From: a virus
Strand: one strand, 5' to 3'
Virus record (IMG/VR): IMGVR_UViG_3300028844_003870
DNA length: 49,893 nt
Part shown: positions 9,378 to 49,893 of the stretch, piece after piece
Layout: each line of letters starts with the position of its first letter
How positions within the stretch are numbered: position 1 is the stretch's first letter
The notes under the pieces: generated by a model
What the model was told of the DNA's origin: nothing
What the model saw: the letters and a program-made list of their open reading frames with translations, nothing else
The model's database searches: none
Position numbers and translations under genes: made by a program

Positions 9378-9400
9378 AAAGCCTCGTTATGAGGCTTTTT
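9378..9400. terminator. bidirectional terminator
   Basis: AAAGCCTC-GTTAT-GAGGCTTT between convergent genes; overlaps the methylase stop codon. Confidence 0.7.
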
Positions 9401-10301
9401 CTATCCTTTCTTTAGCAATATTAAAATACCCTTCATCCATTTCAATGCCTATAAATGATCGGCTTAGGTTTTTAGCTGCTACGCCCGTGCTGCCACTACC
9501 CATAGTCATATCAACTATTAAGTTACCTTCGTTGCTAAATGTCTTTATTAAGTCCTCAAGCAATAAGACAGGCTTTTGCGTTGGGTGGTATCCGTCATAA
9601 TCTTTTTTGTATTTTAGAATGTTTGATTTGAACTTTGCACCTTCTGGTAGGTTAAATACACTGTTAAATACACTGTTAATTTCTGACAGTTCGTCAAATG
9701 ATTTAAACCACACCTCAGCGTCTATACTGTACTTATCGATAAGCGACTTGTAAGCCTGTTCCGTGCATAAGCCAAATTGAGACGACTGACTATTCGCCTC
9801 CATAAAATGCTGTAAAGCACCACTGCCAAATTCAAAATAAAACCTCGACCTACTGTAATTCGTAAAATCCTTTACTTTTAGCGCATAATCTCGCAAAGGA
9901 TGAAGCCCTAAGTGGTCGTGATTTTTACTAAAAACCAAAATATCTTCGTAATAATTTAAAGGTGCTTTTTTTGCTGTTAGAGCATTTGCAAAGTGATCTT
10001 TCTCCCAGATCATTGAATAACTAAACGGCAAGTTGGGAATTGCATTTGTAATTAACTCGGTTGTAAAAGGTTGTTGTGCAAATAAGCACATTTTCCCATT
10101 CTTTCGTAATATTCTGTTTGTTTCATTCATTATAGTGTTAGTATCAATAACAACGTCCCAATTACTAATTCCTAGCTTCCTCCCTCCGTCAGTGTTCATA
10201 GTCCCATATGGCAAATCGCAGACAATTAAATCAACACTACCGCTTTCTATTTCTTTCATTGCAATTAAGCAATCATCATTTATTAATTTTATTTCTTGCA
10301 T
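9387..10301 (-). CDS. DNA methyltransferase (N6-adenine or N4-cytosine, beta-class order)
   Basis: DLIVCDLPYG (motif IV, D-PPY-like) near the N-terminus; MTMGSGSTGVAA...IGIEMD (AdoMet motif I) near the C-terminus. Confidence 0.85.
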   Translation of the reverse strand: MQEIKLINDDCLIAMKEIESGSVDLIVCDLPYGTMNTDGGRKLGISNWDVVIDTNTIMNETNRILRKNGKMCLFAQQPFTTELITNAIPNLPFSYSMIWEKDHFANALTAKKAPLNYYEDILVFSKNHDHLGLHPLRDYALKVKDFTNYSRSRFYFEFGSGALQHFMEANSQSSQFGLCTEQAYKSLIDKYSIDAEVWFKSFDELSEINSVFNSVFNLPEGAKFKSNILKYKKDYDGYHPTQKPVLLLEDLIKTFSNEGNLIVDMTMGSGSTGVAAKNLSRSFIGIEMDEGYFNIAKERIEKAS

Positions 10302-10797
10302 TTATCTCTCTTCCTTTCGGTTCTTTATAGTGGCATGGCTTGCATAGAGTCAGTCCATTGGATATGTCAAGTCTTAACTCTTTATGTGTAGCAAACGGCT
10401 TAATGTGATGGGCCTCAATTATTACGGCGTTTCCAGTTGAACTCCTTGCGTTGCACTTTTGGCAAGTCCAATTATCTCTAGAGAAAACTTTTTCACGCCA
10501 ATCTTTGTATTCTGGGGATCTTCTTATTCTCGCATTCTCGCCGCTAATCCCACCCTTCCAGTTGGGGTTATTCTTGCCAGATCTATCATATACTGCTGAC
10601 TGGACTTTTTTCTTCCCTTTTTGGTGGGACTGGTAACAAATCTTAGAGCAAAATTTATTTTGACCTTTTTCTATCGCTGATTTTTTACGCCAAAACTCAC
10701 CACCGCAAACCAAGCAGTTAAATGCTCCTCCTGTCCTCAGTGATTCTGATATTCTCCTTTTCCTTGCTTCGTTATCTGAAAAAACACCCTTTGCCAT
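10276..10797 (-). CDS. HNH endonuclease with N-terminal zinc-finger-like region
   Basis: CLVCGG...CSKIC then RDNWTCQKC...EAHHIKPF...NGLTLCKPCH. Trimmed to the ATG preceded by GAAGGAG; overlaps the methylase start by 26 nt. Confidence 0.85.
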   Translation of the reverse strand: MAKGVFSDNEARKRRISESLRTGGAFNCLVCGGEFWRKKSAIEKGQNKFCSKICYQSHQKGKKKVQSAVYDRSGKNNPNWKGGISGENARIRRSPEYKDWREKVFSRDNWTCQKCNARSSTGNAVIIEAHHIKPFATHKELRLDISNGLTLCKPCHYKEPKGREINARNKINK

Positions 10798-10932
10798 AAC
10801 AGCTCCTTCATTTTTAAGATTCATGCGCATTGTAACATTGATTTGATTTACTCTCTATGCAGTCGCCCAACATTAAATTTATCATCTTTCACCTCTTCAT
10901 TTAAGTTGCACTAACCATACCCCACAACAAAA

Positions 10933-32349: not shown

Positions 32350-32922
32350 TTACTGGTTTAATTTTATTTCAATAGAGTTAGGGGCCTCATTTCCGAAAAC
32401 GTCCCAACCCTCCGAAGCATTTCTGGCGAACATTTCAAGCCTTGGGATGTCTCCGAATAAGCTTTCTATTCTAGTCATCACTTCTTTTGGCTTTCTGCTG
32501 TGCTTTGTTCTTTCTGCAATAACGAGTGACTCTATATTATTCGCTAACTTGTATTTTGACATCGCCCCTTTTGTAGCAAGAATGCAAACTTCACTGCTTT
32601 TCATTGTCCATGGGGCAACGTTTTTGCAATAATTCCCCTTGCTTGTGGTTTTAACCCAGTTGAAGGCAATTGTTTTGAACTTAAATCCCCACGCACTAAC
32701 TAACTCTAGCGCATCTGGAAGGTGTGAGTCGGTCACCCACATGAACAAAGCGCAGTCATCGTCGCTTATGGACTTAATGTCCATCATGGCAAGGTCTTTT
32801 GTTTTTGTTGTCATGTATTGCTCCGATAAGCTTTTAATCTCGTTTCCTTTAGAATTGTTAACTGCAGACTTACTTCCATAGTGCCATGGTGGATCAGCGT
32901 AAATTACTTTGTATTTTTTCAT
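32350..32922 (-). CDS. MT-A70-family DNA N6-adenine methyltransferase
   Basis: KVIYADPPWHYGS (DPPW catalytic motif) at the N-terminus; 190 aa. Confidence 0.85.
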   Translation of the reverse strand: MKKYKVIYADPPWHYGSKSAVNNSKGNEIKSLSEQYMTTKTKDLAMMDIKSISDDDCALFMWVTDSHLPDALELVSAWGFKFKTIAFNWVKTTSKGNYCKNVAPWTMKSSEVCILATKGAMSKYKLANNIESLVIAERTKHSRKPKEVMTRIESLFGDIPRLEMFARNASEGWDVFGNEAPNSIEIKLNQ

Positions 32923-36572: not shown

Positions 36573-37598
36573 TTAAAGTGCTTCGCATGATTCAGAGCAT
36601 CCGCCATCTTCATCTTCTGAAGACTTTCTCATGCTTCTAATTGTGCTTTCAAGTTCAGAACGACTCAGATGCTCGAACTTCTTGATGATTGAATCTATAT
36701 TATTATTTCCACGATAAATAATTCCGTGCTTTTGTAGCTCATGTATTTTTGGCAGGTCTTCTCTTAAGTTCGCTTTGTTTAAAGCTTCCTTCCATTTTTC
36801 AAATAACTCTGGCTCATCCCTAATTGCCAATGCAATTTTATTGACTGACTTTTTCACGCAGAAAACACAGTTTCCTAGGTGTTCTTTGATCTCTAAATCA
36901 AATGGCATCTTAGACCAAAACCTCAACACGTCAGATTTGTCAAAATCTGAAATCTCAGCAAGATAGTGTAAGTCTTCTTTTTTATCTCTAGCATCAAGGT
37001 AATTGAATGCGTTTTTAAATGCGATTGCGTGTTCAGCTCCGTTATAAAACATTTTCGCAAATGGCAATTCACCGCCTTCTGCCCAAGCTAAAAACATATC
37101 TGAAATATATTCCTTGTCGTAACCTAATGATGAAAGCTCCTTGTACGCTTCCTGTCCTATTAATCTTGATGGTTCATCTCGACGAATACCTAGCCACATC
37201 TCACTTCCGTTTTTCCCAAAGTTATCAACGCGCCACTTATCAGCAAGCGTTTTCTTTAACTCTCTAGTGCAAGAAGCAGCATTGAAGCTTGGCTTTCCGT
37301 ATTTCTCCATTACTTGTGTTATTGGTAGCATGTCACAACCAATCTCATCGATAGGTACGACTTTGTAATCGCTAGACTTACGCCCTGTTCTTACTATTGG
37401 TCTTAGACACGCCAAGTCTATTTCAAAGTGATTCACTACGTTCTTAATGAAGTCATAAGTTTTAGGGTGCTCGGCTCCAGTGTCTAGGTATAAGAATTTA
37501 ATATTATTCTTGCCAAACTTCTTAATCATCTCTGCAACGTTTACTGCGCTAGATCTTCCGCCGCTAAAGCTTGATACTATTTGCTTTGAATTGCTCAT
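36573..37598 (-). CDS. PAPS-reductase-family PP-loop ATP pyrophosphatase-like protein
   Basis: SFSGGRSSAV (PP-loop SGGxxS) and YLDTGAEHPKTYDF (PAPS_reduct-type block); CVFC and CSESC cysteine pairs. Trimmed to the ATG after GAGGAA. Confidence 0.75.
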   Translation of the reverse strand: MSNSKQIVSSFSGGRSSAVNVAEMIKKFGKNNIKFLYLDTGAEHPKTYDFIKNVVNHFEIDLACLRPIVRTGRKSSDYKVVPIDEIGCDMLPITQVMEKYGKPSFNAASCTRELKKTLADKWRVDNFGKNGSEMWLGIRRDEPSRLIGQEAYKELSSLGYDKEYISDMFLAWAEGGELPFAKMFYNGAEHAIAFKNAFNYLDARDKKEDLHYLAEISDFDKSDVLRFWSKMPFDLEIKEHLGNCVFCVKKSVNKIALAIRDEPELFEKWKEALNKANLREDLPKIHELQKHGIIYRGNNNIDSIIKKFEHLSRSELESTIRSMRKSSEDEDGGCSESCEAL

Positions 37599-37674
37599 TT
37601 TATTCCTCAATGGTGATTATAATGCTCATTGCCCCATGATTTTTAGTTGATGGGGAGTATAGTCGTCGGGTTAT

Positions 37675-47259: not shown

Positions 47260-47661
47260 ATGAAATTCGAACACGTAACAAGTAAAATTATCCAGTGGCA
47301 TCATGACCGCAACTTGATTGATGGTGCAACAGACTGGACGCAAACAGAAAAGATGATGGAAGAACTGTTAGAGTTGATTGCATCACAGCTACCAGGTGAA
47401 TATGAGCCGTCGGATATAGCCTTTGCAGGGAATCAGATTATTAATGACCTTTTGCTTAAGGGTAGAATTAAGTCTGTCGCAGAAGAAGATAAGGCAAAAG
47501 CAAAGTTAGATGCTTTAGGTGATATGACCGTTGTTGCTATCAACATCGCAGAACGTAATAGCTCATCATTAGATACATGCATGAACCTTGCGTGGAATGA
47601 AATTAAAGATCGTAAAGGTCAAATGATTAATGGTACTTTTATTAAGGAGTCGGATTTATGA
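47260..47661 (+). CDS. MazG-like nucleotide pyrophosphohydrolase
   Basis: IIQWHHDRNLIDGATDWTQTEKMMEELLEL typical of the MazG/NTP-PPase fold. Confidence 0.7.
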   Translation: MKFEHVTSKIIQWHHDRNLIDGATDWTQTEKMMEELLELIASQLPGEYEPSDIAFAGNQIINDLLLKGRIKSVAEEDKAKAKLDALGDMTVVAINIAERNSSSLDTCMNLAWNEIKDRKGQMINGTFIKESDL

Positions 47662-48113
47662 ACATATTAAAATTGCTAGAGTTTGAAGAGGGTTATCGCG
47701 AAAAGCCATACATTGATAGCCTTGGTTACCCAACGGTTGCCATAGGTAAGCGTATAGGCCCAAAAGGCGCATCAATTGACCTGTACCAGTTTAAGGTGTC
47801 AAAGCTAATGGCTTCTTTGTGGCTAGAGGAAGAAGTTGCTCATACCGTTCGCGTTGCTAATGCGCAGGAATGGTTTAAGCCTTTAAGCGATGATCGAAAG
47901 GTAATTATCCTATCGATGATTTATCAAATGGGCTTGGTTGGCGTGCTTAAGTTTAAAAATATGATTAAAGCTTTAGAGTCTCGCAACTGGAAAGAAGCAG
48001 AGAAGCAAGCTTTAGATAGTTTGTGGGCGCGACAAACCCCTGAGCGAGCATTGCGCCATGCTAAGGCGTTAGGTGGTGATAAACTGGCGGATGTGTACAA
48101 AGGTTTAATTTGA
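47658..48113 (+). CDS. endolysin, T4-type lysozyme (GH24)
   Basis: LLEFEEGYREKPYIDSLGYPTVAIG carries the E-D-T catalytic triad spacing. Confidence 0.85.
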   Translation: MNILKLLEFEEGYREKPYIDSLGYPTVAIGKRIGPKGASIDLYQFKVSKLMASLWLEEEVAHTVRVANAQEWFKPLSDDRKVIILSMIYQMGLVGVLKFKNMIKALESRNWKEAEKQALDSLWARQTPERALRHAKALGGDKLADVYKGLI

Positions 48114-48130
48114 TGCAATTAGCATAACTA

Positions 48131-48166
48131 AGCATTGACCATCATATCAATGCTTGGTATTGTTTA
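48131..48166 (+). terminator. terminator-like hairpin after endolysin gene
   Basis: AGCATTGA-N8-TCAATGCT followed by a T-rich tail. Confidence 0.5.
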
Positions 48167-48194
48167 TCTCGTTGAGCGGAAACGCTTACCCGAC

Positions 48195-48213
48195 ACTCAG
48201 TAAAGAGTAAATC
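48195..48213 (+). repeat. 19-bp direct repeat, copy 1
   Basis: ACTCAGTAAAGAGTAAATC, identical to 48314-48332. Confidence 0.9.
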
Positions 48214-48310
48214 AATGCGCGGATCTGGAAATTGGTACGCATTGGCAACAAGCGGACGGATCAGATGGTGCGCAAAGTCGCATTACTGTTTCGATTCCAG
48301 CCCGCGCATT
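48214..48310 (+). ncRNA. structured element with tRNA T-loop-like motif (alternatively a 35-aa ORF 48215-48322)
   Basis: 9-bp closing stem AATGCGCGG/CCGCGCATT; GTTTCGATTCC at 48288-48298; GC-richer than its surroundings; I could not fold a cloverleaf. Confidence 0.35.
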
Positions 48311-48313
48311 TAT

Positions 48314-48332
48314 ACTCAGTAAAGAGTAAATC
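48314..48332 (+). repeat. 19-bp direct repeat, copy 2
   Basis: Identical 19-mer, followed by hairpin TTCAATG-N18-CATTGAA (48333-48364). Confidence 0.9.
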
Positions 48333-48566
48333 TTCAATGTAAGCGAACCGAATAGCGCATTGAATACCTTTCGGAGTTACTGGTGTGTTAACGCTGACTA
48401 ATAGGAAAGACTATTATTGATAGAAAGCTTCTTACTAAAAATAAGGTAGATGATTTATCTACCGCGCAGGTTTAAGCGCATAAGTGATGAAACAAGGCTC
48501 TAGTTAGATGCGATACTCAAGCACCCTATATCACAGGCAAGTGGCTTGCATGACGCGAGCAACCAA

Positions 48567-48648
48567 GGTGAATTAGCTCAGTTGGTAGAGCGCATAGGCG
48601 ACTAGTTAAGCCATGAGGCCATAGGTTCAAGTCCTATATTCACCGCCA
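48567..48648 (+). tRNA. tRNA-like gene with over-long anticodon arm (identity unassigned)
   Basis: Acceptor GGTGAAT/ATTCACC, D arm GCTC-AGTTGGTA-GAGC, T arm ATAGG-TTCAAGT-CCTAT, encoded GCCA tail. The anticodon arm is CAT(A)GGC-GACTAGTTAA-GCCATG (23 nt instead of 17). Confidence 0.6.
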
Positions 48649-48650
48649 AT

Positions 48651-48724
48651 GCGTTATTAGCTCATCGGTAGAGCAGCCGACTTTTAATCGGAAGTGGCAG
48701 GTTCAATTCCTGCATAGCGCTCCA
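48651..48724 (+). tRNA. tRNA-Lys: tRNA-Lys (anticodon UUU)
   Basis: Hand-folded cloverleaf: GCGTTAT-TA-GCTC-ATCGGTA-GAGC-A-GCCGA-CTTTTAA-TCGGA-AGTG-GCAGG-TTCAATT-CCTGC-ATAGCGC-T-CCA. Confidence 0.85.
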
Positions 48725-48820
48725 AATTAAAAATAAACTTCCTATCGTGTTGTCGATTTAAAGAAGAGAGGAGAATATCCTTTTTCAGGGAGACCAAATT
48801 CAAAACAAACAGGAATTGTC

Positions 48821-49294
48821 ATGCAAAAGTTTAAAGTGTTTATCTTATCAGCTATCATCGGAACGTCTTTGTCAGGGTGCCAGTTGCTAACGTCATCTGT
48901 TGATTTAGCTGCTGATACGATCCTAGCGTCTGTAGAAGTCGACGCAATGCAAACAGATTTGGGTAATTACGTTGATAATCAAACTGCACTGGACGAAGTT
49001 GATGCACTGCAAGCGGATATCTTAGAAACTTTAACTACTGGCAATGGCGCTGAATATTTATTTAGCTATCAAGGCCGCGCATTGATCGCTTATGCAACTT
49101 TACGAGATGAAGCTTTAAGTCGTTGGGACGAGTTATCAGCAGAGCAACAAACCAACCTGGTTGATTTAGATAATCAGTTAATTGCACTGAATGATGAATT
49201 TAACTCAATGAAAGACTCAACATCGTTCACGACTGAGATTTTAGATATTCTTTATCGCGCAGCTATCCTTATGAGTTATTACAAAGCAATCTAA
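48821..49294 (+). CDS. lipoprotein (157 aa)
   Basis: Signal peptide with lipobox LSGC (MQKFKVFILSAIIGTSLSGCQ); helical mature part. Confidence 0.7.
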   Translation: MQKFKVFILSAIIGTSLSGCQLLTSSVDLAADTILASVEVDAMQTDLGNYVDNQTALDEVDALQADILETLTTGNGAEYLFSYQGRALIAYATLRDEALSRWDELSAEQQTNLVDLDNQLIALNDEFNSMKDSTSFTTEILDILYRAAILMSYYKAI

Positions 49295-49416: not shown

Positions 49417-49820
49417 TGGCCAAATACTCACTATTCAAATTGTTAAAGGCTCAAGATATGGCGCGTAAAGGCGTCATTTCTGGATCTAAAAGTTTTAAGA
49501 ATGCGAGTATTTTACAGCTAGTCGAGTATTGCAATGGATGTGGCGCTGCTGGTTCGTGGTTTCGCCCTCCTGCTTACATCTGGGGCACTTGGATAGGTGC
49601 GGCTTGCATTCCTCATGATTGGGATTACTCATTTGGCACAACTGAGTGGGGAAAGCTTAAAGCAGATCGCCGCATGTACAAAAACATAATAAAGTTAGTC
49701 ACTGCAGATGAAGCCGTTAACTGGTGGAAGCCTTTGATTCTGCAAAAGTCACGAGCAAATCTATACTATCAATCAGTCAGGAAGTTTGGCGGCAAGGCAT
49801 ACTGGAGGGGCAAAAAATAG
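49416..49820 (+). CDS. prokaryotic secreted-PLA2-like protein
   Basis: YCNGCGAAGS (Gly-rich loop), AACIPHDWDY (C-x-x-HD-x-x-Y) and C-terminal YYQSVRKFGG resemble the bacterial/fungal secreted phospholipase A2 family. Confidence 0.65.
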   Translation: MAKYSLFKLLKAQDMARKGVISGSKSFKNASILQLVEYCNGCGAAGSWFRPPAYIWGTWIGAACIPHDWDYSFGTTEWGKLKADRRMYKNIIKLVTADEAVNWWKPLILQKSRANLYYQSVRKFGGKAYWRGKK

Positions 49821-49893
49821 CAATAAATATTGATTTTGGTTATACTAGGGGAAATCCTATTAACTAAAGAAATTTTTATGTCGCTAGATGTTC
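49750..49893. repeat. terminal direct repeat copy 2 (identical to 1-144)
   Basis: 144/144 identity. Confidence 0.95.

Follow-up and report, generated by a model that had tools for sequence, protein, structure and literature searches.

A tRNA-Asn-related gene with an enlarged anticodon arm in a marine Vibrio-type phage: preserved tRNA look-alike or broken tRNA

What is a phage gene that has every part of a tRNA in order except the anticodon arm? IMG/VR virus record IMGVR_UViG_3300028844_003870, a DNA of 49,893 nucleotides (nt) that we call the window, carries such a gene at positions 48567..48648 on the plus strand, 82 nt long including an encoded CCA. We refer to this tRNA-like gene as T and to a paralogue upstream of it, at 48451-48540, as U. 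T is recognized by Rfam model RF00005, by ARAGORN run with -ps95 or -i and by alignment to phage tRNA-Asn, and the alignments clearly indicate that it descends from a phage tRNA-Asn(GUU) gene in which the anticodon arm was rebuilt from 17 to 23 nt. T belongs with the aberrant tRNA-derived genes in phage tRNA islands, and is either a tRNA look-alike that has been preserved or a tRNA that has broken down. We tentatively favour the former and regard T as a non-decoding tRNA mimic under selection, possibly a bait for an anticodon-loop nuclease.

A canonical tRNA body around an enlarged anticodon arm

The acceptor stem of T, GGTGAAT/ATTCACC, forms seven Watson-Crick pairs. Read directly from the sequence, U8 and A9 precede the D arm, GCTC-AGTTGGTA-GAGC, and G26 follows it; the variable loop is AGGCC, the T arm is ATAGG-TTCAAGT-CCTAT, and the 3' end consists of G73 and the encoded CCA (48646-48648). 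In the sequence, the cmscan alignment and the ARAGORN drawings, T has a 7-bp acceptor stem, a 4-bp D stem with G18 and G19, a 5-bp T stem and a TTCRA loop. Moreover, the tertiary partners U8, A14, R15-Y48, A21 and G46 are present. RF00005 scores T at 55.2 bits against a gathering score of 29, with an E value of 1.4e-10 in a search of 2.4 kb and of 5.8e-9 in a search of 98 kb.

A preliminary description of this DNA, made from the letters of the sequence, had called the acceptor stem, D arm, T arm, discriminator and encoded CCA canonical and the anticodon region 6 nt too long. The direct reading and the 55.2-bit score bear out the first statement. The second also held: the anticodon-arm region (48593..48615, plus strand, CATAGGCGACTAGTTAAGCCATG; direct reading) has 23 nt instead of the normal 17, and in the Rfam alignment T has 17 nt in the anticodon-arm core where the model has 11. 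We conclude that the observation is real and far beyond chance.

With default settings, ARAGORN reports only the neighbouring tRNA-Lys at this locus and misses T, which is called only at -ps95 or with -i. The anticodons assigned to T in these relaxed modes, gact, taa and tta, are mutually incompatible. A relaxed ARAGORN search, listed in the preliminary description as a check, therefore detects the gene but yields no agreed anticodon.

The arm of T does not have one clear structure. The preliminary description had folded it into a 6-bp stem with a bulged A, CAU-A-GGC/GCC-AUG, closing a 10-nt loop, GACUAGUUAA (48600..48609, plus strand, GACTAGTTAA), which in the alignment to phage tRNA-Asn contains CU-A-GUUAA. 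This fold, at -22.3 kcal/mol in the full molecule, is legitimate but not uniquely best, as at least three folds are nearly equal. A second fold, at -22.7 kcal/mol, consists of a GCGA-tetraloop hairpin and a GCC-AUGA-GGC mini-hairpin that recruits the variable loop, and this mini-hairpin prevails in the ensemble with a pair probability of 0.73. A third, drawn by ARAGORN at -ps95, has a long variable region and the stem CAUAG/UUAAG under an 8-nt loop with the 'anticodon' GACU. On its own, the arm reaches -4.0 kcal/mol, a value equalled by 15% of shuffles.

T lacks the canonical 5-bp anticodon stem with a 7-nt loop carrying U33 and a purine at position 37. The preliminary description had likewise found no such loop, and brute force over contiguous 6-nt deletions gave the same answer: even the best deletion, of GACTAG, results in a loop, GCUUAAG, that has C at position 33 and stands on a stem interrupted by an A.C mismatch. 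With -i, ARAGORN treats the same GACTAG as a 6-nt 'intron' at position 33/34 and arrives at tRNA-Leu(UAA) or 'tRNA-Stop(UUA)', again with C33 and a mismatched stem. An intron-bearing tRNA gene was considered and rejected, as a group I intron is much longer than 6 nt and the 30 of 78 predicted proteins that were scanned with Pfam include no splicing enzyme; tRNA introns of 6 nt are not known from bacteria and phages. T does not have the regular 5-bp stem of an 8-nt-loop tRNA either: the two bases 5' of CUAGUUAA, G and A, are without partners, which gives a loop of 10 nt, and the stem below has three extra pairs and a bulge.

The loop does contain CTA and TTA, noted in the preliminary description as the anticodons that would read UAG and UAA, and also the ACTAGT palindrome mentioned there. 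However, the triplets are by-products of CU-A-GUUAA, because the GUUAA context, G73 and the similarity of the body point to an origin from tRNA-Asn(GUU). Neither CTAG nor ACTAGT stands out in this genome. A search of the genome for enrichment of the loop complement, as for an antisense target, found none.

Relationship to phage tRNA-Asn(GUU)

The best local alignment of T is to the tRNA-Asn of Alishewanella phage Slicko01 (OQ508956.1 19294-19369), with a score of 87.5 and a z of 17.6; the nine other isoacceptors of this phage score at most 60. Compared with the tRNA-Asn of Vibrio phage vB_VmeM-32 (KU160494.1 28049-28124), the acceptor stem of T differs in one compensated pair, and the G73-CCA end is the same. 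Common to T and these two tRNA-Asn(GUU) genes are the acceptor stem GGTGRAT/ATYCACC, G73, CCA, the D arm, the variable loop, the T arm and the loop motif ..GACU.GUUAA. Moreover, the tRNA-Asn of Slicko01 is, like T, followed by a tRNA-Lys.

The differences lie in the anticodon arm. An additional A separates U33 from G34 in the loop sequence of T, CU-A-GUUAA, which otherwise equals the Asn loop CUGUUAA; unlike the phage tRNA-Asn(GUU) genes, T is without a 5-bp stem and a 7-nt loop. The 5' strand of its arm has 9 nt compared with 5, and the 3' strand 6 compared with 5; several indels are therefore needed to derive it, not one insertion. Thus, body similarity and G73 place T with tRNA-Asn(GUU), but GUU does not stand at positions 34-36 of a canonical loop: the inserted A has displaced it, and the 10-nt loop in which it lies tops a lengthened stem.

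The upstream paralogue U

U (48451..48540, plus strand) is an indel-rich, decayed paralogue that lies upstream of the leader preceding T and was recognized by collinear alignment with T. In gap-tolerant alignments the local score of U and T is 50-55, compared with 24-29 +/- 4-5 in shuffles and random genomic windows, and 0 of 400-500 controls reach it. U is similar to no ordinary tRNA. It has the T-specific AGCGCATAgGcGA and CTAGTTA, the latter with the inserted A, and shares with T a derived 5' extension, GCGCATArGyGA (AGCGCATA[A/G]G[T/C]GA), that contains the extra bases of the 5' strand. Altogether, the two sequences suggest that the arm was already abnormal when T and U split.

Close relatives of the phage were taken as contigs with 95-96% identical lysozyme or 157-aa proteins, and their flanking DNA is 88-93% identical. 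In one of them, L171, U is present with 92% identity over 137 nt, including its 12-nt insert, and U therefore predates the split of these lineages; in another, L170, U is truncated. A supposed tRNA-Lys remnant after U was rejected, as 474 of 2000 shuffles did as well.

The differences between T and U were polarised with two tRNA-Asn outgroups. Since the split, the tRNA body of U has changed by eight substitutions and seven indels and that of T by none, and T matches both outgroups at all eight substituted positions. About 69% of random substitutions in the body would show as stem breaks or lost universal bases. On this comparison, the body of T appears to have been held intact after the arm became abnormal, while U decayed.

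The slot in close relatives

The slot occupied by T is limited by two conserved elements. On its upstream side, a leader that is predicted to form a hairpin (48541..48566, plus strand, GTGGCTTGCATGACGCGAGCAACCAA; ..GCTTGC..GACGCGAGCAACCAA) ends at the 5' end of T. On its downstream side, 2 nt 3' of T, lies a canonical tRNA-Lys(UUU) (48651..48724, plus strand), the neighbour that the preliminary description had named and that ARAGORN and Rfam, at 62.9 bits, both identify. L166 and L170 carry this tRNA-Lys(UUU) with a difference of 1 nt, despite flanks that are only 88-92% identical. Its discriminator is U73, and G27 and A43 are mismatched at the top of its anticodon stem.

In L166, the same leader is followed by a canonical tRNA-Trp(CCA), with an Rfam score of 48.7 bits that is below the 55.2 bits of T. 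This tRNA is unrelated to T, and T is therefore neither a mutated version of the relatives' tRNA nor a copy of it that gained an insertion. L170 has nothing in the slot, its leader running directly into tRNA-Lys, from which it follows that an upstream tRNA is not needed for tRNA-Lys. Finally, in L171 (ENA ERZ23498598 scaffold_185688) both tRNAs are lost and U is kept; the scar at 1400-1470, GCGTTAT joined to CCATTAAAT, retains the first 7 nt of tRNA-Lys, followed by CCA and the trailer. A relative with a normal tRNA at this position, which, together with an obvious insertion in this copy, the preliminary description had named as a refutation, thus exists in L166, but its tRNA-Trp(CCA) is unrelated, and L170 has no tRNA in the slot at all.

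Farther away, in the Vibrio myovirus BUCT_X002, the syntenic junction holds a different array of four tRNAs, and that of the myovirus 1.149.O holds none. The array of BUCT_X002 (PQ166232.1, 38138-38483; L162 in our set) consists of Gly-UCC, Ser-GCU, Ser-UGA and Arg-UCU on the minus strand. The GenBank annotation gives three tRNAs only, on the plus strand; Ser-UGA, which is tRNA-Sec-like in Rfam (40.5 bits), is unannotated.

In total, the tRNA locus turns over quickly, and the presence or absence of T among near-identical phages resembles that of an accessory gene.

Searches for homologues and analogues

No homologue with the arm of T was found in IMG/VR (five pattern designs), the JGI metagenomes, 185,579 GTDB species genomes or the GenBank phages. 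In IMG/VR, the 16-mer of the loop had 0 matches, as had the D arm combined with CTAGTTAA and the T loop. The acceptor stem and D arm combined with the T arm and acceptor stem had a single match, an unrelated tRNA-Phe; CTNGTTAA retrieved only normal tRNA-Asn or 8-nt-loop tRNAs, and the 3' half of T retrieved tRNA-Ser genes whose acceptor stem is identical by coincidence. Apart from the contig of this phage, the JGI metagenomes returned only one sequence, L120, a degenerate and unrelated tRNA-like; the GTDB genomes returned only two 8-nt-loop tRNAs, and blastn against the GenBank phages only generic tRNA similarity.

A class of long-arm tRNA-like genes was considered and is not claimed: the 93 IMG/VR loci with 30-36 nt in the pattern from D arm to T loop are heterogeneous, none is related to T, and ARAGORN explains most of them by long variable arms or introns. 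A tRNA-like gene at ~590-670 on the minus strand of IMGVR_UViG_3300010365_000341 (L107) has intact acceptor, D and T arms and ~40 extra nt in the anticodon region; it receives no ARAGORN call and lies in an array with tRNA-Leu, tRNA-Phe and tRNA-Asn.

The nearest structural analogues of T are rare Asn-like tRNAs with the 8-nt loop CUUGUUAA, found in large IMG/VR contigs and in two alphaproteobacterial metagenome-assembled genomes. True 8-nt-loop tRNAs are present in L113, L116-118, L159 and L160. L113, L116, L117 and L118 (IMG/VR 3300045988/3300045591) have 14-29 tRNAs each, among them the Asn-like CUUGUUAA tRNA, read as 'tgtt' by ARAGORN, and another read as 'taaa'; these adjoin a suppressor with the anticodon CUA, and in L117 also a tmRNA.

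The phage and the rest of its tRNA island

Positions 1-144 of the window recur unchanged at 49750-49893, a 144-nt terminal overlap that shows the phage genome to be completely assembled as a circle with 49,749 unique bp; the assembly copies at ENA, JGI and Logan are 100% identical to the window. The large terminase has 82% protein identity to those of ~48-kb Vibrio myoviruses such as BUCT_X002 and 1.149.O; the phage is of the marine Vibrio type. Stop codons are TAA in 59 genes, TGA in 11 and TAG in 8. No gene in the phage needs read-through, as in-frame extensions only run into adjacent genes.

Pfam found only DNA-metabolism, methylase, HNH and lysis functions in the 30 scanned proteins. A PAPS-reductase-domain protein (36573-37610), an MT-A70 methyltransferase (32350-32922), an N6/N4 DNA methylase (9387-10301) and an HNH endonuclease (10276-10830), all on the minus strand, look like DNA-modification or anti-restriction equipment, and none of the four is RNA-related. 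Over the whole window, ATA (Ile) is used 24.9 times and AAA (Lys) 46.1 times per 1000 codons; tRNA-Ile2 is not encoded.

In the list of open reading frames, the tRNA island is a non-coding interval of 707 nt (48114..48820, no strand assigned) between the endolysin gene (47658-48113, a T4-type lysozyme), which forms its upstream border, and the gene of a 157-aa lysis-cassette protein (48821-49294), which forms its downstream border. More distant homologues of the 157-aa gene lie directly 3' of an endolysin gene or of another small gene, without an island between.

Upstream in the island, a 94-nt element at 48217-48310 folds strongly (-38.4 kcal/mol, z -3.4) and lies between two perfect direct repeats of 19 nt, ACTCAGTAAAGAGTAAATC, at 48195-48213 and 48314-48332; in IMG/VR, the repeat finds only chance 16-mers. 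The element has a T-loop-like TTCGATTCC and a GCGCGG/CCGCGC closing stem, has no Rfam match and is not significantly tRNA-like. Element A was also tried as a decayed tRNA-Tyr, tRNA-Ser or tRNA-Trp and rejected as not significant, with an ARAGORN call only at -ps70, where shuffles give 2.4 hits. The module 48195-48332 is not in L166, L170 or L171 and looks like an inserted unit. Finally, the stretches 48237-48246 and 48351-48362, of 10 and 12 nt, are complementary to 48645-48658, the junction of the CCA of T with tRNA-Lys; these complementarities could be due to chance or could affect folding of the precursor.

Possible roles of T

If T is a tRNA mimic under selection, it would act as follows. 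There is no terminator between T and tRNA-Lys, the gap between them is 2 nt and the body of T is perfect, so T would be transcribed together with tRNA-Lys and cut by RNase P and 3' exonucleases like any tRNA. Because its GUU is out of register with the acceptor end, in a loop that is enlarged and on a stem that is longer or ambiguous, it should not fit the ribosome or the asparaginyl-tRNA synthetase in register and would not be a normal decoder. What selection would keep is the tRNA-shaped RNA itself. Its loop, ..CU-N-UUAA.. with the A at 33/34, could bind an anticodon nuclease or another reader as a poor-substrate bait, and the adjoining tRNA-Lys(UUU) would restore decoding. PrrC-type enzymes cut at the 33/34 junction, and tRNA-Lys(UUU) is their classic target. 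By this analogy, a role as bait or poor substrate toward a reader of Asn/Lys-type loops would be the most plausible specific function of T, and the decoy suggested in the preliminary description may be right in that it suits these surroundings. That T, by displaying an Asn/Lys-type loop with an extra base at 33/34 on an over-long arm, does bind, block or divert a host anticodon nuclease or other loop reader together with tRNA-Lys(UUU) is nevertheless a proposal that we consider rather doubtful.

Several observations count against a selected mimic. The evidence for function is the difference in rate from a single paralogue in one lineage, and nothing else. The similarity of U and T on which this comparison is built is not significant with strict gap penalties, where 43 of 400 controls reach it. 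Moreover, an old gene-conversion patch from U into a once-normal tRNA-Asn could give the same picture. Under gene conversion only the time after the split from L171 counts, in which ~3 neutral events are expected in 82 nt (P ~0.1); the unblemished body of T would then not be very surprising, and the evidence for constraint would be weak. As no homologue with the arm of T was found, there is no evidence of conservation or covariation for the arm, which is thermodynamically unremarkable and structurally ambiguous. T is also missing from the three closest relatives and is dispensable there. No RNA ligase, kinase/phosphatase or tRNA enzyme, and thus no partner protein, is among the 30 of 78 proteins scanned. 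Finally, to be effective against a catalytic enzyme, a decoy would have to bind tightly or be highly expressed.

Many of these observations are also consistent with T being a functionless relic, a tRNA-Asn that was disabled by indels in the arm, perhaps by gene conversion from U, and that persists inside the tRNA-Lys transcription unit because it has not yet been deleted. We take this possibility seriously without adopting it. T occurs in one lineage only, the slot of its closest relatives is empty or holds another tRNA, and in L171 both tRNAs are deleted. Decayed DNA is evidently tolerated in the island, as U and ~350 nt of additional non-coding sequence show. The stability of the arm is ordinary when 15% of shuffles equal it, and if CAT-GG/CC-ATG is taken for the ancestral 5-bp stem plus a single inserted A, the loop would have been enlarged by insertions. 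In addition, partial or aberrant tRNA genes are reported to be common in prokaryotic annotation (PMC9897764).

The distribution of the changes argues against a relic. All of the indels relative to tRNA-Asn, at least four, are confined to the 23-nt arm, and the other 59 nt have none; since T and U split, all body changes have been on U (eight substitutions and seven indels compared with zero). Moreover, the 12-nt insert in the arm of U predates the split from L171, so that any conversion was not recent. The 'decayed pseudogene' of the preliminary description thus fits the abnormal arm but not the remaining 59 nt, which are without defect while U took all the damage. Taken as a pseudogene, T has defects only in the arm and no body change against the 8 + 7 of U; this comparison uses an alignment of T and U that is gap-tolerant only, and T has no orthologue.

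It is improbable that T acts only in cis, as a module of the tRNA-Lys precursor that aids RNase P processing, 5' protection or stability, be it of tRNA-Lys or of small RNAs upstream. The spacing of only 2 nt between the CCA of T and position +1 of tRNA-Lys, the lack of a terminator between the two and the two upstream stretches of 10-12 nt complementary to their junction would all suit such a module. However, in L170 tRNA-Lys stands right after the leader with no tRNA in the slot, and L166 uses the unrelated tRNA-Trp. Moreover, cleavage by RNase P at +1 of tRNA-Lys depends on the fold of tRNA-Lys alone and requires nothing of T.

Least probable of all is an expanded-loop decoder, whether a +1 frameshift or quadruplet tRNA (AGUU or UAGU) or a CUA/UUA stop suppressor: natural Asn-like 8-nt-loop CUUGUUAA tRNAs have an extra base at the same 33/34 junction (L113, L116-118 and the two alphaproteobacterial genomes) and ARAGORN -i can force the anticodon UUA or UAA by removing GACTAG, but in T CUAGUUAA is not closed by a stem, sitting in a 10-nt loop with three extra pairs and a bulge below, CUA and UUA never stand at 34-36 behind U33 or in a frame with a purine at 37, the relaxed anticodons (gact, taa and tta) conflict, removing GACTAG would call for a 6-nt intron of a kind we do not know from bacteria or phages, stop usage is standard, and no gene needs read-through. 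The suppressor or frameshift tRNA that the preliminary description had listed first is accordingly unsupported.

What the locus means depends on which of the two leading explanations holds. The phage tRNAs recently recognized as weapons against tRNA-cleaving defences of bacteria are, in all known cases, working decoders; an intact, non-decoding T beside tRNA-Lys(UUU) would, if truly a mimic, add a layer of RNA decoys to them. It would be the first tRNA-shaped RNA decoy of a phage against tRNA-targeting immunity and could help to identify the cognate nuclease in marine vibrios. If T is a relic only, the locus is a clear small example of fast turnover of a tRNA cassette in one phage lineage, in which genomes with ~90% identical flanks show four states of the slot: T, tRNA-Trp, empty and both tRNAs lost.

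Comparison with known systems

The classical +1 frameshift suppressor tRNAs with 8-nt anticodon loops are sufD and sufB. Like T, the natural CUUGUUAA 'tgtt' tRNAs have an Asn-type loop with one nucleotide added at the 33/34 junction. However, the 8-nt-loop tRNAs keep a regular 5-bp stem and are found by default ARAGORN, whereas T has an open 10-nt loop on a longer, bulged stem and is missed.

The tRNA pseudogenes and fragments in phage and bacterial arrays (PMC9897764) are like T in that T is an aberrant gene in an island with a decayed copy, U. Typical pseudogenes have scattered stem mismatches or truncations; by contrast, the defects of T are confined to the arm, and the rest of the gene scores above the bona fide tRNA of a relative.

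Phage tRNAs that act in counter-defence are the closest functional comparison. The tRNA-Lys of T5 counters AriB of PARIS (PMC11464382), amplification of the tRNA-Tyr of T6 counters Septu (PMC13096335) and the tRNA-Tyr of T5 counters PtuAB of retron Eco7 (PMC11555353); mutation of anticodon loops has been put forward as a hypothesis for phage tRNAs (PMC10264068). T resembles these tRNAs in lying in an accessory tRNA locus beside tRNA-Lys(UUU), the isoacceptor hit by PrrC and PARIS. U is a trace of past duplication at the locus, reminiscent of the amplification of tRNA segments in counter-defence phages. However, the counter-defence tRNAs function in decoding, their changes in the anticodon stem-loop being point changes, whereas T is not expected to decode normally. 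By sequence, it is the tRNA-Lys(UUU) of this phage that fits the type of the T5 tRNA-Lys; T, as a probable non-decoder, does not.

In the literature we found no description of a phage tRNA-like decoy or of a phage tRNA with an expanded arm, and no experimental precedent for a bait role of a tRNA-shaped phage RNA. Pseudo-ToxI repeats act against ToxIN. The Racr RNA anti-CRISPRs are phage RNA mimics (PMC10651486). Racr and pseudo-ToxI differ from T in RNA class and target, but have in common with the role proposed for T the concept of a non-coding phage RNA that imitates the RNA partner or substrate of a defence protein.

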